Part shown: in pieces, positions 5,842 through 16,342 of the stretch
Position numbering within the stretch: position 1 is the first letter of the stretch
Layout: each line of letters begins with the position of its first letter
IMG/VR virus record: IMGVR_UViG_2579778652_000002
Coordinates: 1-17,145 of that record
Length of the DNA: 17,145 nt
Origin: a virus
Taxonomy: Duplodnaviria; Heunggongvirae; Uroviricota; Caudoviricetes
Reading direction: 5' to 3' (one strand)
Program-made: the position numbers and the translations under genes
The notes under the pieces: generated by a model
Told to the model about the DNA's origin: nothing
Seen by the model: only the letters and a program-made list of their open reading frames with translations
Database searches by the model: none

Positions 5842-6372
5842 TCACACCATTCCGGGCAAATACATTTGCACTTCATTTGCCACTCTCTCACGTGCAAAAT
5901 GAAGCAATCTTTTTCGCCCACCAACGCCCCACTTAGCCATTTGGCTTGCGCACTGGCTTATCGCTTTGGTTTCAGTATTGATGATGTGATCGATTCTATT
6001 CAGACGGGACATTGCGCCAACGCCGAGACGGACAACCGTTTTGAAAACTTCATAAACTTCGATTTCAAATTCCGGCTTAATCCATGCTGCATATCTGATT
6101 GCCAGAAGTTCAACACCCCACACACCTGGTTCTGCACCACCTTTGATTATTTTAAGTGGTTGAATTTGTTCCAAAGTGCTTTTTTGCACTTTGGCCTCCA
6201 GTGCTTTTATGAAGCGTTTTATCTGCGCGCTACGCAAAAACTGGCTTGGGCGCTGTTGCTCTGTAGCCTCTCCATTTGCAACTGCTGCTGCATGGAGATC
6301 GTTTAAGTTGTAGCGTCCATCCTCATCAACACGAACGGACACACCATTGACAATAACTGTTGGGTACTTCAT
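5842..6372 (-). CDS. KilA-N domain protein
   Basis: 176 aa; N-terminus VIVNGVSVRVDEDGRYNLNDLHAAA ... LLAIRYAAWIKPEFEIEV fits the KilA-N pattern as I recall it. Flanked by about 255 bp and 345 bp of non-coding DNA. Confidence 0.7.
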   Translation of the reverse strand: MKYPTVIVNGVSVRVDEDGRYNLNDLHAAAVANGEATEQQRPSQFLRSAQIKRFIKALEAKVQKSTLEQIQPLKIIKGGAEPGVWGVELLAIRYAAWIKPEFEIEVYEVFKTVVRLGVGAMSRLNRIDHIINTETKAISQCASQMAKWGVGGRKRLLHFARERVANEVQMYLPGMV

Positions 6373-9790: not shown

Positions 9791-10077
9791 GGCTTAATCT
9801 TCCCCTCCTTCAGCAGTATCGCCTGCGTCCTGATCACGCCTTCGAGGTGGTAAAGTCTGGCGTCTTTGTTGTCGAGATTATGGGTGCGTCGGTCGATTTC
9901 ATCGTGACACGCGCTACAAGCCCATGCGCCGATCAGGTCGTCAGGCTTCATTCCCGTTCCGCAAATTCCAGCCATCCGGTAATGTGCCAGAACTGTAGTT
10001 TCAGGATTGCCATTGCATACGCCGTAAATACGTACCTGACATTCTCTGCCGCGTGCTTCTTTGCGTAGATTGGCCAT
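9787..10077 (-). CDS. YbcO-like (DUF1364) nin-region protein, putative zinc-binding nuclease
   Basis: 96 aa; MANLRKEARGRECQVRIYGVCNGNPETTVLAH ... CSACHDEIDRR, resembling DLP12 YbcO. Confidence 0.7.
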   Translation of the reverse strand: MANLRKEARGRECQVRIYGVCNGNPETTVLAHYRMAGICGTGMKPDDLIGAWACSACHDEIDRRTHNLDNKDARLYHLEGVIRTQAILLKEGKIKP

Positions 10078-10802
10078 TAAGCAGCCTCCCCTGTTACTTT
10101 CAGCATTCCGTTATCGAGCAGCTTTCTGGTCAGCCACTGTTGGCCACGCCCGGTGATTTTTGTGGTGAACGATATCTGTATTCCGTGATTTGTATTGACC
10201 GCTGTTTCTTTCACTGTGAAATAGCCGCGATCCATATATTCCTGCATTGGCACATTGCGCCGGGAACCTGAAGCAATAAGGATTTTGTGATCGCGCATCC
10301 ACGCAAACAGTTTGTTTGGACCAATTCCAACAACCTTTGCAAAGTTTCCAATCAAAATTCCGCTGGCCTCGCCAACGCGATCGGCAAACTCAACTTTAGG
10401 TGCGGCAATTGCGAGCTGGTTTTCCAGTTGCATTTTCTGCTCAGCAAGATCAGCAGCAAGGCGCAACGCTTCTGGTAGCGTTTTGGGGATATTAACCGCA
10501 GCTTCTTCAAGCTCTCGCCAACGGTCAACAAGACGAGCGGTGAATTCCGGCGACAACTGAGCGACGACAATAATGCTGTCGCGCTTACCTTGTTCGCCTT
10601 CGAAGACGTAGAAATAACGCTTCCCGGTAATAACACCTAAATCATTGATTATGTTAGTGTGCTGCAATGCAGGAGGCTTGATAACGCCACGTTTCACCAA
10701 TCTATCTATGGATACTTTTACATTGCTATGGCGGCTTTCTACCAACTCAGCGATTTCAATGCTTGTCATTTTGATGGCATTGCCATTTATTAACTCACTC
10801 AT
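10077..10802 (-). CDS. Rha-domain / ANT (KilA-C) antirepressor-like protein
   Basis: 241 aa; N-terminal Rha-like segment (TSIEIAELVESRHSNVKVSIDRL) and C-terminal ANT-like segment (FAKVVGIGPNKLFAWMRDHKIL ... MQEYMDRGYF). Confidence 0.75.
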   Translation of the reverse strand: MSELINGNAIKMTSIEIAELVESRHSNVKVSIDRLVKRGVIKPPALQHTNIINDLGVITGKRYFYVFEGEQGKRDSIIVVAQLSPEFTARLVDRWRELEEAAVNIPKTLPEALRLAADLAEQKMQLENQLAIAAPKVEFADRVGEASGILIGNFAKVVGIGPNKLFAWMRDHKILIASGSRRNVPMQEYMDRGYFTVKETAVNTNHGIQISFTTKITGRGQQWLTRKLLDNGMLKVTGEAA

Positions 10803-10965
10803 CGTCTTCTTCCTCGTACATTGAGCTATTCGGATCGCTCATCAGTTCTGCGCAGCAATCGGAGCACACGTGAACTTCCAGAAAATGCAGCTTTTGACCG
10901 CAGTTAGCGCACGTTAAAGCCCGCTCGACGCTTTCTTGTTCGTAACTTCGATTTGGGTCAATCAC
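10795..10965 (-). CDS. ninF: NinF-like small Cys-rich protein (GTG start; absent from ORF track)
   Basis: Hand translation gives (M)[55 protein letters not shown], close to lambda NinF; GTGA overlap with NinE stop; its stop overlaps the Rha/ANT start. Confidence 0.6.
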
Positions 10966-11144
10966 CTTGTTTTCCTCGCACGTTCTCTAAGCCACCGGAT
11001 ATCCCACAGGTGAGCCGTGTAGTTGAAGGTTTTTACGTCAGATTCTTTTGGGATTGGCTTGGGTTTATTTCTGGTGCGTTTCGTTGGAAGGTATTTGCAG
11101 TTTTCGCAGATGATGTCGGTGAAACTTCGTCGCTGTCGTCTCAT
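10962..11144 (-). CDS. ninE: NinE
   Basis: 60 aa from internal Met [23 protein letters not shown]..., near-identical to lambda NinE; ATGA overlap with the methyltransferase stop. Track ORF extends further upstream. Confidence 0.8.
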
Positions 11145-11668
11145 GCCGCCCTCCTGACGCCCTGCCCGATCGCCATCAATGCCGCTTTGGATACGGTAGT
11201 AAACATCCGTCGAGGACTGATGAACGGTCGCCAAATCAGCAGCATGGAGCCTTTGCTGTTTCCCTTCTTCTCCAGCCCTGTCGATGGTTCGATAAAATTA
11301 ATCCGTCCATCAGTGATAATGCGAACTTCGTCGACACTCTCCAGAGCCTTGCTGAACCATCCGACTGACATATCCTCTGGCACAAGCATAACTACCGTCT
11401 GTCGCTGTTGTATGCACTGCTCAGTGGCTTTTTCCACCCACGGCCTGATATTGCTGTACGGTGGGTTATTCCAGATTGCACCGTGGCTTATCCACTCAGA
11501 ATTGAGCGCGTCGTCGGCCTCAGTTAGCCAGTGAGCGCACAGAGCATTTTTGTCGCTCGCTGCCGAATCCAGCCAGAATCCAAACTCAATATCCAGTGCA
11601 TCAAAAAGCCAAAGCGGTGTTTGCCAGCAGTCCTTGTCGTGTGCTGGCGTATTTGATTTGATAGTCAT
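11141..11668 (-). CDS. Phage Dam-family DNA N6-adenine methyltransferase
   Basis: About 175 aa from Met at 11668; [24 protein letters not shown] and NPPY motif; ATGA overlaps with NinB upstream and NinE downstream. Confidence 0.8.
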
Positions 11669-12111
11669 GCAGCCTTCCCTTTTCGTTGTGACCATTCATA
11701 CTCTCGCCGGGAGTCATCACTCCACCGCACGTTGCGCTCTGAGCCGAACCAAAACATGATTTCGATAAGCTCAGTCATGCTGGCCTTTCGCATTTTGCTG
11801 GTACGCACGCCAAGCATGACAACGCCACCGTCGATACCAGGCACACTTCGTTGCTCCAGTTTTTTGGTCTTAAGCCACAGGGCAGTAAACAGGTCTTTCC
11901 AGTCCTCCGGCGCAAGTCTCTGTCCATGCCAAAGCACCTGACGTGATACGTCCTGCAATAACGCCCACATAAGGCGGTTTTGAGGATTGCTCCGCTTGGG
12001 TTCTTTAATGTGGACTTCGTGAGGTGACTTGTCGTCGATCGGAAGTGAGAGTATTGCGTCTATGGCGTTATTTCTGATTGCTTCGTTGCGAAGCATGTAT
12101 ATTTGCTTCAT
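11665..12111 (-). CDS. ninB: NinB (Orf-family recombination mediator)
   Basis: 148 aa; NPQNRLMWALLQDVSRQVLWHG ... RWSDDSRREYEW, similar to lambda NinB; GAGG RBS. Confidence 0.8.
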   Translation of the reverse strand: MKQIYMLRNEAIRNNAIDAILSLPIDDKSPHEVHIKEPKRSNPQNRLMWALLQDVSRQVLWHGQRLAPEDWKDLFTALWLKTKKLEQRSVPGIDGGVVMLGVRTSKMRKASMTELIEIMFWFGSERNVRWSDDSRREYEWSQRKGKAA

Positions 12112-12133: not shown

Positions 12134-12475
12134 TCATTGATACCCCCTCTCACTTAATCGCCTCCACGCTTCGTTAAACTCTTCTCGGGTTGCGCCGGAT
12201 TTTCTTTCTTCAAACATCATGCATTCGCTGATGTCTCCCCATGACTTTGGTCGCTTTTCAGCGAACAGATCATCCCATTCGAATACCCAACGGCCTGATT
12301 TTCGGTAGTGGTAAATGGTCAGCCATGTTGTGCTGTTCGCTGGATACCCATAGAGAACTTCGACTTTTTGATCACGGTCTTTATGCTTTTTCAGCAGGAT
12401 AAAGCCAGCAACCAGCGAAGCTCCGGCAAGAATGATGATTGGAATTTGCCAGTCAGCCACACTTCCCTCTCCCAC
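12134..12475 (-). CDS. Hypothetical single-pass membrane protein (nin region, ren position)
   Basis: GTG start at 12475, or GTG at 12460 with GAGGGAAG RBS; N-terminal TM (WQIPIIILAGASLVAGFILL) then about 80 aa soluble region; no recognisable domain. Confidence 0.5.
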   Translation of the reverse strand: MGEGSVADWQIPIIILAGASLVAGFILLKKHKDRDQKVEVLYGYPANSTTWLTIYHYRKSGRWVFEWDDLFAEKRPKSWGDISECMMFEERKSGATREEFNEAWRRLSERGYQ

Positions 12476-12508
12476 AAATAAAAAGGCCTGCGATTACCAG
12501 CAGGCCTG
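12476..12508 (-). terminator. Intrinsic terminator after the helicase gene (tR2 analogue)
   Basis: Minus strand: AGGCCUGC-uggtaatc-GCAGGCCU (8-bp stem) followed by UUUUUAUUU; located where lambda has tR2 between replication genes and nin. Confidence 0.7.
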
Positions 12509-12532: not shown

Positions 12533-13909
12533 TCATACGTCAGCCCCTTGTGCATATCGTCTGCCACGCGCAGCAGGTGCATTTGATGCTGTGCAAATCT
12601 GTCTGGCTTCATCCTGGTCACATGCAACAAAGTGTCCGTTACAGAACCGCTGGTAAACCGTACCAAGTGAGCCAAAACGGTTTTTCGTCACGATGATTTC
12701 AGCAAATGGCGCAGCGCTACTGTTCTCGTCATATACCGCTTCCCGATAGAGCATGATGATTGAGTCTGCGTCCTGCTCAATGCTTCCTGAATCACGCAAA
12801 TCTGCGTTTGTCGGGCGTTTGTTTGGTCGCTTCTCAACATCGCGCGAAAGCTGACTCAGGGAGATAACCGGTGTTTTCAGGTCTTTCGCCATCGCCTTCA
12901 GGCTTCCGGAGATGTGAGCAATTGCGAGGTCGTTGCGGTCTGCTTTCGGCTTCTCAATCAGGCCAAGATAATCCGCCATGATGAGTGAGAGGTTTGGATT
13001 TTCCTGTTTGTGCCGTTCTGCGATTGAGCGTATTTCTTCGACCGATAACCGCGAGGCATCGACTACCCATACATCCAAATCTGCAAGCTGACTCATGCCG
13101 TTAGCAACACGTGCCCAGCCCTCGTCATCCATCGATGCAGGATTTCGCAGTACGCTAACCGACATCCTCCCGGCGTTGGCAATGCTTCGCTCTGCAATCT
13201 GCAATGCGCTCATTTCCATTGAGAAAATCAATACTCCGCGCCGGACGTCAGAACCAGGAATAACGCGGCTTGCAACGCCTTCGGCAATCTTCAGCGCCAG
13301 CTCGGTTTTCCCCATACCAGGACGAGCAGCGATTATCACCAGGTCTTCTGCGTTCATCCCTCCGGTGATGGCGTCAAGTTCTTCGATTCCGGTCTTCAGG
13401 GTATCGGACTCTTCTCCGTTCCTCAGACGCCTGTCAAGCGTGTCAGTGTAGTCGGTGATGATTTCCCCTAACCGTACAGGTTTAACCTCGTCACGGGGCT
13501 TTCTGATGGCTGAAAGACGCTTTACAAGTTCATCCATCGCCTGACTCGATGCGTCGATGGTTCCGCTCTGAATTGGTTCACGCATTTCATCCATGATTTC
13601 CAGCACCAGACGGCGGTGATAGTTATCCGCAACCATTCCGGCATATCCCTTCAGGTTTGCGGCACTCGGGCAGTTTTTGCTGGTCATCAGGATTGACGTG
13701 AAATGCTCCTCTCCGCACGCCTCGGCAACCATCAGCGCGTCGATTAGGTTTCTGTTTCGCGCCTGCTTGCGGATAACCTCGAAGGCTTTCCGGTAGAGCG
13801 GAATTGAAAACGCTTCCGGCTCCAGCGTTGCCAGAACGTCACTGGCGGTTGGTGTTAATCCACCAATCAGCAGGCCACCGATAACACTCGCTTCGATATC
13901 CTGTCTCAT
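12533..13909 (-). CDS. Replicative DnaB-type helicase (P22 gene 12-like)
   Basis: 458 aa; Walker [10 protein letters not shown], DnaB-like N-terminal domain; ATGA overlap with the upstream initiator gene. Confidence 0.85.
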
Positions 13910-14736
13910 GCAATCCCCCTGTCTGCAAACTTCCCTTCCCGAACTCCCGTTAACGAGTCTTCTCTCAGCAGGTAATCAAAATCAGCCGTCCAGCCCGTGT
14001 CGTTGTCTCCGAAGTAAAACGGCTTGGCCTGATGTACAAACGCCCTGACATACGCTCTGAAACCGTCCACGTTTGGCGTTTTCAGTTGCGGAATGATTTT
14101 CTTCAGGCGACGTTTGCGTTTCTCGTTGACCGCAACAGCGTGTGGCAGTCTGTCACCGACTTCGGTGTTGTAGGCGTTCAGGAAGGATTCATAGTCGATT
14201 CGTTCTGCCTTGCGACGTTCAGGTTTAACCTGCCCATCGCCGCCCCCGTTAGGGGGTAAGGGGGTATTTGTATTTATTGTCTTTTGTATATTGTCTTTTG
14301 TGTTTGACTGATTCGGTAAATTGCTTTTTACCGATTTGGTGAAGGTTTGTTTTACCGAATTGGTAAATGTTTTACCGAATCCGTTAACTTTCGTTTTCCA
14401 CTCGGAAATGTTTGTATTCATACCAACTTGACGCCCCACCTGAATGAGAACTCCCATTCTGATAAGCTCGTTTTTGGCGGTAGAGCATTTGGTTGGTGCC
14501 ATGCCAGTGAGTTCAGCGAACTGTTCGTTTCCGATCCAATCTATTTTTTTGTTGTAACCGTATGTCTTGCGCCACACAGCCATAACAATCAGTAACTGAT
14601 GTAGAGTAAGTCCAGAAAGCATGGCGGCTTCTAACAGTGTGTTTGCAGTCCGAGTGTATCCATCTTCGAGTTCTGCCACGCGATGCTCCACGACCTCCAG
14701 TTGAGGCCTGTAATCAGCTAACTTAACGACGCCCAT
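13906..14736 (-). CDS. Replication initiator (lambda O / P22 gene 18-like)
   Basis: 276 aa; CAGGAG RBS; contains iterons and an AT-rich stretch within the coding sequence (repeat TFT-x-SVK in the protein), as in lambda O. Confidence 0.8.
14262..14395. repeat. Putative ori: four TTTACCGAAT-type iterons plus adjacent AT-rich region inside the initiator gene
   Basis: Iteron copies at about 14311-14324 (inverted), 14328-14341, 14351-14367 (near-palindrome TTTACCGAATTGGTAAA) and 14371-14388; AT-rich 14262-14305 with tandem ATTGTCTTTTGT x2. Confidence 0.6.
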
Positions 14737-15655: not shown

Positions 15656-16342
15656 ATGGATAAATACGAACAAAGACGACTAAGGCTGATAGAGATAAGA
15701 GACCGATTCTGTAATGGAAAGGCCTCAGAGTTGGCTCGTCGAATAGAAAGGGAACCATCATACGTTTCCAGAATGCTGTATCCGGAAGGAAAAAGCGGAA
15801 AAAAACGCATTGCTGACGATATGATGGAACTAATTGAAAAATCTTTTAATCTCCCACGCGGATGGATGGACATGCTTGCAGATGGTAAAGCTGGAGCTAC
15901 GGACCATCTTGAGTTTGCGGGTAACGTTCGTGCGGGTTTTGTTCCGGTAATTGGTGAAGCCGTTTTGGGAGTTGATGGCTCAGTGGATATGATTGAATTC
16001 AGATCCGGTTGGTTAAGCATCTACAGCGGCGATAAAGATGCTTACGGTCTGAAGGTTAAGGGTGACAGCATGTGGCCAAGGATTCAGTCAGGAGAATATG
16101 TTGTTATTGAACCAAATACGCCAGTACATCCAGGTGATGAAGTCTTTGTAAGGACCAAAGACGGTCACAACATGATAAAGATCATGAACAAAACAAGAGA
16201 CGGTGATTATCAGTTTAGTAGCATAAACAGTGATCACCGCCCAATCACTCTTCCTGTTGAAGAAGTTGATAAAATGCATTTTGTTTCAGCTATTGTGAAA
16301 CACACCAGGTACGTAGACCAGGACGATCTGCCAAAAGTTTGA
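15656..16342 (+). CDS. cI: CI-type prophage repressor (HTH plus S24 LexA-like peptidase domain)
   Basis: 228 aa; N-terminal HTH (ASELARRIEREPSYVSRML); C-terminal S24 motifs (KVKGDSMWPRIQSGEYVVI, MIKIMNK); divergent from cro. Confidence 0.85.
   Translation: MDKYEQRRLRLIEIRDRFCNGKASELARRIEREPSYVSRMLYPEGKSGKKRIADDMMELIEKSFNLPRGWMDMLADGKAGATDHLEFAGNVRAGFVPVIGEAVLGVDGSVDMIEFRSGWLSIYSGDKDAYGLKVKGDSMWPRIQSGEYVVIEPNTPVHPGDEVFVRTKDGHNMIKIMNKTRDGDYQFSSINSDHRPITLPVEEVDKMHFVSAIVKHTRYVDQDDLPKV

Follow-up and report, generated by a model that had tools for sequence, protein, structure and literature searches.

A phage orphan adenine methyltransferase of the PF05869/TIGR01712 family, probably specific for GATC, encoded in the nin operon of a mosaic lambdoid prophage

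The dam gene carried by a 17,145-nt stretch of viral DNA (hereafter the window) very probably encodes a small, orphan, AdoMet-dependent G(m6A)TC methyltransferase of the PF05869/TIGR01712 family, a delayed-early product of the nin operon most likely topping up GATC methylation of the phage DNA. The window belongs to an E. coli prophage, a lambdoid mosaic of the HK620/P22-like type, and dam is an ordinary, already known prophage gene, ranking among the commonest lambdoid accessory genes. The features discussed below are listed in Table 1.

The six-frame ORF list and the raw sequence place the dam ATG at 11668-11666 and the stop codon at 11143-11141. A preliminary description of this DNA had given the coordinates of an ORF of about 175 aa correctly, omitting the strand, which is the minus strand. 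The 528-nt gene encodes a protein of 175 aa, beginning with MTIKSNT and ending with IGQGVRRAA. A 184-aa form starting at an in-frame ATG at 11695, 27 nt upstream, was rejected, because homologues begin at the position corresponding to 11668 and are mostly 175 aa long, and the RefSeq form is the 528-nt one. The ATGA stop-start overlaps described earlier on both sides of the gene are found, and Shine-Dalgarno sequences located inside the preceding genes accompany both the dam and the ninE starts; coupling itself is putative. Translation would proceed through successive overlapping cistrons, dam among them (ninB-dam-ninE-ninF and following genes). Between ninB and rusA each of the six consecutive junctions is an overlap of 1-8 nt, and O and P overlap by 4 nt; overlaps are the general style of the operon, and are not special to dam. 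Three plus-strand ORFs antisense to dam (10953-11534, 11531-11656 and 11550-11759) have been dismissed as mechanical, as they yielded only a sub-threshold Tat match (E=0.004). No RNA family reached the gathering threshold in a Rfam scan of the whole window, and hence nothing RNA-based overlaps dam.

Table 1. Position of dam, of its signals and motifs, and of other relevant features in the window
Feature	Position	Strand	Description and evidence
dam	11141-11668	minus	175-aa orphan DNA N6-adenine methyltransferase, M.EcoVT2Dam orthologue; ORF, PF05869, TIGR01712, phrog_111, PADLOC, identity to VT2-Sakai
Catalytic motif IV	11456-11467	minus	N68-P69-P70-Y71 (AAC CCA CCG TAC); sequence reading
Motif-I-like segment	11555-11572	minus	L33-D34-S-A-A-S38, end of strand 1, with invariant Asp34; sequence, alignments, model
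ATGA overlap, ninB stop (TGA)/dam start (ATG)	11665-11668	minus	Sequence
ATGA overlap, dam stop/ninE start	11141-11144	minus	Sequence
Shine-Dalgarno-like GGGAAGG for dam	11673-11679	minus	4 nt 5' of the ATG, within the ninB 3' end; upstream sequence ...AAAGGGAAGGCTGCATG
Shine-Dalgarno AGGAGG for ninE	11150-11155	minus	Within the dam 3' end; ...CAGGAGGGCGGCATG
ninB	11665-12111	minus	Upstream operon gene; PF05772, E=7.3e-49
ninE	10962-11144	minus	Downstream operon gene; PF05322, E=1.4e-42
dam 3' tail, mosaic junction	11141-11174	minus	Homologous to the 3' tail of HK620-type ninB; HK620 (L005) 12001-12046
tR2-like intrinsic terminator (candidate)	12484-12507	minus	Between P and the nin genes; 8-bp stem, 6 GC pairs
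113-aa ORF	12134-12475	minus	GTG start, between the tR2-like terminator and ninB; full-length match to phrog_5903, function unknown
Roi-like gene	10077-10802	minus	KilAC (ANT) and weak Rha domain, in the nin region; HK620 counterpart roi
KilA-N gene	5842-6372	minus	Between lysis and terminase genes; HK620 counterpart hkbK
Inverted repeat	14327-14367	plus coordinates	18-bp stem, TTTACCGA(T/A)TTGGT-type units; terminator scan; inside the O gene (13906-14736)

The Dam protein matches the Pfam profile PF05869 'Dam' with an E value of 1.6e-64 and a score of 217.1 bits, the cut-off being 28.1, over profile positions 1-167 of 169. This is its sole Pfam match. The NCBIfam equivalog TIGR01712 'phage N-6-adenine-methyltransferase' is similarly matched over its entire length (positions 1-165 of 165), with 261.5 bits and a cut-off of 97.05. 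Both matches are far beyond chance and exceed curated cut-offs, which supports the initial reading of the gene as a phage Dam-family N6-adenine methyltransferase. Phrog_111, annotated as DNA methyltransferase, is the PHROGs match, and orphan-methyltransferase models are the best PADLOC matches. The profiles assign Dam, as a full-length member, to the phage T1/HP1/VT2 'Dam' family. No cognate endonuclease is adjacent to the gene, the neighbours being NinB, NinE, NinF, a Roi/Ant-like protein, YbcO and RusA; this finding and the PADLOC matches bear out the orphan status proposed at first. In the Pfam search the protein showed no sequence match to the profile of the E. coli/T4 Dam family (PF02086), nor to MT-A70, and no ORF of at least 100 aa in the window bears a DPPW motif.

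The family is large, with 8671 representatives at 50% clustering (E<=1e-3), and 1877 phage records, that of phage T1 among them, were found to contain homologues. Most full-length homologues measure 170-185 aa. In some database proteins (P0001, P0005, P0011, P0013 and P0121) the Dam domain is fused to NinE, NinB, RusA or other neighbouring domains; examples are a 233-aa protein featuring both PF05869 and PF05322, and a protein of 370 aa. Such entries probably arise from frameshift or gene-calling artefacts where genes overlap by 4 nt, or from rearranged prophages.

Conserved residues were sought in two alignments, one of distant relatives (49 sequences 33-66% identical to the query, 50 sequences in all) and one of close homologues (the 47-sequence alignment also fed to AlphaFold2). 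T17, D34, N68, P70 and R122 are invariant among the distant relatives, and all five are present in the query; P18, F31, A37, W59, P69, Y71 and other residues are conserved there at a level of at least 90%. All four residues of the NPPY motif, noticed already in the preliminary description and corresponding to residues 68-71, are invariant among the close homologues. D34 is invariant in both sets. Inactivating changes in the catalytic motifs, the kind of evidence that would have spoken against the first reading, were sought by alignment, and every family-invariant residue was found intact.

It had been stated at first that the target specificity could not be inferred. This does not hold, in view of the identity of 173 of the 175 residues of Dam to the product of the VT2-Sakai dam gene (H0105, BAA94133), a degree of similarity permitting the inference. 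The two proteins differ for the substitutions I60V and T82A, and the two genes at 7 nucleotides, 5 of the differences being synonymous; the adjacent ninB genes are only 91% identical in nucleotide sequence. H0105 is the sole ORF of at least 100 aa featuring a (D/N/S)PP(Y/F/W/H) motif in a six-frame scan of the complete VT2-Sakai record (AP000422.1), and is for this reason identified with M.EcoVT2Dam. Other VT2-Sakai genes have been rejected as candidates on the same ground; H0075 is a DUF551 protein. M.EcoVT2Dam, 99% identical to the enzyme described here, was reportedly cloned in 2001. According to a statement in PMC6602927, made on the authority of Radlinska & Bujnicki 2001 (PMID 11720311), it 'is known to target 5'-GATC-3''; M.EcoVT2Dam and M.EcoGV are separate entries in the same paper. 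M.EcoT1Dam is described as G(m6A)TC-modifying, and M.Btr190III, which is 35% identical to M.EcoT1Dam, was cloned and methylated GATC, with substantial off-target methylation (PMC4996451). From the near-identity to M.EcoVT2Dam and from the T1-type relatives, the target of Dam can be inferred to be G(m6A)TC.

The dam gene lies in the nin operon, the delayed-early operon of pR, with a tR2-like terminator on its upstream side and Q on its downstream side. On the dam coding strand (12507-12484) the candidate terminator reads AGGCCTGC...GCAGGCCT followed by TTTTTATTT, and in HK620 an annotated tR2 has the corresponding position, between P and ninA/ninB. The nin region of lambda is delayed-early and antitermination-dependent. 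Being downstream of the tR2-like terminator in the pR operon, dam should be expressed after induction or infection, once antitermination operates. In phage Phi24B, dam is also 528 nt long, and encodes a protein 100% identical to VT2-Sakai Dam. Its transcript changed significantly after norfloxacin induction, and the gene is one of four CMAT genes described as lytic-cycle-linked (PMC3342100). The GATC sites of lambda, P22 and L virion DNA, when only host Dam is available, are under-methylated, 'possibly because replication outstrips modification' (PMC8022706; also PMC3299994). The under-methylation of these virions, the link of Phi24B dam to the lytic cycle and the delayed-early position of the gene make topping-up the most economical role for Dam. 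By analogy with these phages, the enzyme would most likely top up GATC methylation on fast-replicating phage DNA that host Dam leaves under-methylated. Packaged genomes would then be fully methylated, and would be resistant to methylation-sensitive GATC enzymes of the MboI/DpnII type; they would also escape treatment as unmethylated DNA by Dam-directed host systems.

The benefit to the phage is uncertain, given that its normal hosts are Dam-positive, that GATC is depleted in the window, and that the Phi24B authors suggest a role in the lysogen. The window hosts 37 GATC sites, while base composition would predict 66 and a second-order Markov model 87 (ratio 0.43), and among palindromic 4-mers only CTAG has a lower value (0.31). 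This depletion is curious for a phage endowed with its own GATC methylase. GATC sites are also few in P22 and L, which have 62 and 73, respectively, per ~41 kb (PMC8022706).

Dam could alternatively be a GATC methylase whose main role is regulatory, acting on Dam-dependent switches such as lysogeny stability, induction frequency, SeqA/MutH or phage promoters. This seems rather unlikely, though the case for it has some substance. Enterobacterial hosts already methylate GATC, which limits the value of Dam for pure anti-restriction. Host Dam has been cited as a requirement for the stability of 933W lysogeny, and in the proposal of the Phi24B authors phage Dam supplements it; in Phi24B lysogen cultures the Dam protein has been detected immunologically, but the dam transcript followed a lytic pattern (PMC3342100). 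In the window, dam is located behind the tR2-like terminator, in a pR operon that is repressed in lysogens. Four GATC sites fall inside the cI coding region (15656-16342) or at its edge, yet no Dam-sensitive regulatory site has been identified in the window.

In the reading preferred here, Dam would convert the adenine of 5'-GATC-3' into N6-methyladenine, the same mark laid down by host Dam, which belongs to an unrelated sequence family. Dam would consist of a single minimal Rossmann domain of the TaqI/EcoKI type, lacking a separate target-recognition domain. The AlphaFold2 model features one alpha/beta domain of 175 aa, with a mean pLDDT of 83 and a pTM of 0.84. A helix (residues 19-29) is followed by a strand (31-34) ending at D34, and a second strand (64-67) leads into the NPPY motif. 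Helices and strands alternate beyond this motif, and the protein ends with a C-terminal helix (161-174). Flipping of the base into a (D/N)PPY pocket is established chemistry for amino-methyltransferases. The target adenine would accordingly be flipped into the pocket made by N68-P-P-Y71, located after strand 4. By comparison with gamma-class methyltransferases, the region of strand 1 that surrounds the invariant D34 would hold AdoMet; residues 35-63, a region that must help in holding the cofactor, are modelled as a low-confidence coil.

The nearest solved folds are those of PCIF1 and M.TaqI, at only 15-17% identity. The other top structural matches (M.TaqI, BseCI, MmeI, CamA, HsdM) are DNA methyltransferases. 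METTL3-14 is found at rank 48 of the Foldseek matches, as a weak match only, and the host/T4 Dam family (PF02086) matches the model less well than other methyltransferases do. A sequence search of the PDB revealed no relative of Dam, the best E values, 0.18 and 0.69, being those of chance matches. The EcoKI/TaqI-type N6A methyltransferases denominated 'group 2' by Iyer et al. 2016 (PMC4738411), among which PCIF1 is placed, show helices that are degenerate in the surroundings of strand 3, and their catalytic Asn is supported by a helix at the N-terminus. The model of Dam fits this group. As modelled, Dam is essentially a bare catalytic domain, and the model gives no account of how GATC is read.

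A broader substrate may be envisaged because Dam has no recognition domain and the nearest solved fold is that of PCIF1, an RNA cap methyltransferase. It is quite improbable, however, that the physiological substrate is not, or not only, duplex GATC, the enzyme having relaxed specificity or acting on ssDNA or RNA, and methylation of GATC being an effect of over-expression. It is slightly more improbable that GATC activity is only a part of an activity directed to relaxed-sequence DNA, to single-stranded replication or packaging intermediates, or to RNA. Assays of specificity carried out by over-expression can mislead for Dam-like enzymes, to judge from the off-target activity of M.Btr190III and from the MT-A70 enzyme of prophage origin which, annotated as a GATC methylase, is a 16S rRNA methyltransferase when joined by a partner protein (PMC10810198). 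Nonetheless, the near-identical enzyme is reported as GATC-specific, the structural matches listed with PCIF1 act on DNA, and members of the family in the phage records mentioned above are both annotated and employed as DNA methyltransferases. Moreover, dam has no conserved partner gene, and the NinB and NinE pair also occurs without dam, as in HK620.

That dam is a decaying or inactive passenger of the mosaic prophage is very hard to credit, for although many prophage methyltransferases are silent in their hosts (PMC6602927, PMC4996451) and shortened and fused versions of dam exist in databases, the ORF is full length, retains the family-invariant residues and spans nearly the whole Pfam profile, its substitutions relative to VT2-Sakai are mostly synonymous, an identical copy is hosted by another genome, and retention of the gene is very widespread.

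The minus strand of the window features, in order, O, a DnaB-type P, the 113-aa ORF, ninB, dam, ninE, ninF, a Roi/Ant-like gene, ybcO, rusA, ninH and Q; these are followed by lysis genes, a KilA-N gene, and genes for terminase, a P22-type portal and scaffold. A cI-like repressor is encoded by the plus strand. Coverage of the window stays below 80% for every record among the complete E. coli genomes and in the phage collection. It reaches 72%, at ~98% identity, in the best E. coli genomes, and 59% and 53%, respectively, in the best phages, vB_EcoP-611R6 and HK620. The 113-aa ORF has no match in Pfam or PADLOC. A hypothetical protein is annotated at the equivalent place in strain GPEC1240. The inverted repeat found inside the O gene corresponds probably to ori iterons rather than to a terminator. 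HK620 has a replication origin annotated in its O gene, outside the O segment that it has in common with the window.

The location of dam between NinB and NinE, given in the preliminary description, is confirmed by the Pfam profiles matched by the flanking genes, and the term 'inserted' used there is fair, as in HK620 ninB overlaps ninE directly, and dam is missing. Homology to HK620 resumes at 97% from 11159 downward, inside the last dam codons. The 15 nt preceding 11159 are 80% identical to the 3' end of HK620 ninB, and encode the same AIGQGVR peptide found at the NinB C-terminus. Homology to the 3' tail of HK620-type ninB (...AIGQGVRFTDRRYE*) extends over the last ~11 dam codons. By this comparison, a mosaic recombination junction is located inside the dam coding sequence. 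It appears that a ninB-ninE junction was the source of the Dam C-terminal tail, of the Shine-Dalgarno sequence of ninE and of the ATGA downstream, and the insert consequently looks seamlessly coupled on both sides.

At a nucleotide identity of at least 95%, dam is found in 1566 of 5426 complete E. coli genomes (~29%), with a maximum of 5 copies per genome. Strain GPEC1240 hosts one identical copy. In the top records listed, the RefSeq product name is 'phage N-6-adenine-methyltransferase', and the gene lies between NinB and NinE. The 1.3-kb NinE-Dam-NinB segment has matches in 418 phage records, 117 of them over at least 80% of its length, including mEp213, VT1/VT2-Sakai and many Stx phages. 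A literature search combining the RefSeq product name and GATC returned nothing. It is to be explained why phages of Dam-positive hosts often carry a GATC methylase, whether for completing methylation, for widening the host range in the face of MboI/DpnII-type restriction, or for influencing lysogeny. A structural question is how GATC specificity may arise from a bare catalytic domain of 175 residues, belonging to a family for which the PDB sequence search found no solved structure. Methylome studies of E. coli and STEC strains should take dam into account as a second source of GATC methylation, one that is normally masked, and in STEC methylome tables it should be kept apart from the MT-A70-type prophage 'Dam homologue'.

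Among known systems, M.EcoVT2Dam of VT2-Sakai is the closest, as its gene shares with the window dam the length of 528 nt, the position between ninB and ninE and the 4-nt overlaps. Near-identical proteins are encoded by HK97, Phi24B, Sf6, SfI, Nil2, mEp213 and many Stx phages. The window differs from VT2-Sakai in being a HK620/P22-like mosaic prophage and not a Stx2 phage, and the substitutions I60V and T82A are conservative. The T1 and HP1 Dam proteins are the founding members of PF05869/TIGR01712, and both are orphan phage enzymes. M.EcoT1Dam is distant in sequence, matching residues 5-147 of Dam at 33% identity (E=1e-18); HP1 Dam (orf13) is assigned to the same family, and similarity to both HP1 Orf13 and T1 M.T1 is noted in the VT2-Sakai record. 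As T1 is a siphovirus of virulent habit and HP1 a Haemophilus phage of the P2-like type, the context of their genes is not a nin region.

The alpha-class enzymes E. coli Dam, T4 Dam and DpnM (PF02086) make the same G(m6A)TC product, with the same cofactor and (D/N)PPY chemistry. Members of PF02086 have a DNA-recognition insertion after the second strand-helix unit; the window Dam features neither this insertion nor a match to the profile. M.EcoGV/M.EcoPA8orf6770P is also a prophage-borne orphan, called a GATC 'Dam homologue' in STEC methylome papers (PMC6602927, PMC10810198). This enzyme has a DPPW motif and a MT-A70 fold, and is encoded near the int end of Stx phages, whereas the window Dam has NPPY and is encoded in the nin region; the two cannot be equated, since family and locus both differ. 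The MT-A70 enzyme depends on the partner PNB-2, in whose presence 16S rRNA is its preferred substrate (PMC10810198). The motif scan revealed no gene of the MT-A70 type in the window or in VT2-Sakai. PCIF1/CAPAM, which acts on capped RNA, and M.TaqI both carry large extra domains for substrate recognition, whereas Dam would correspond to the catalytic domain only.
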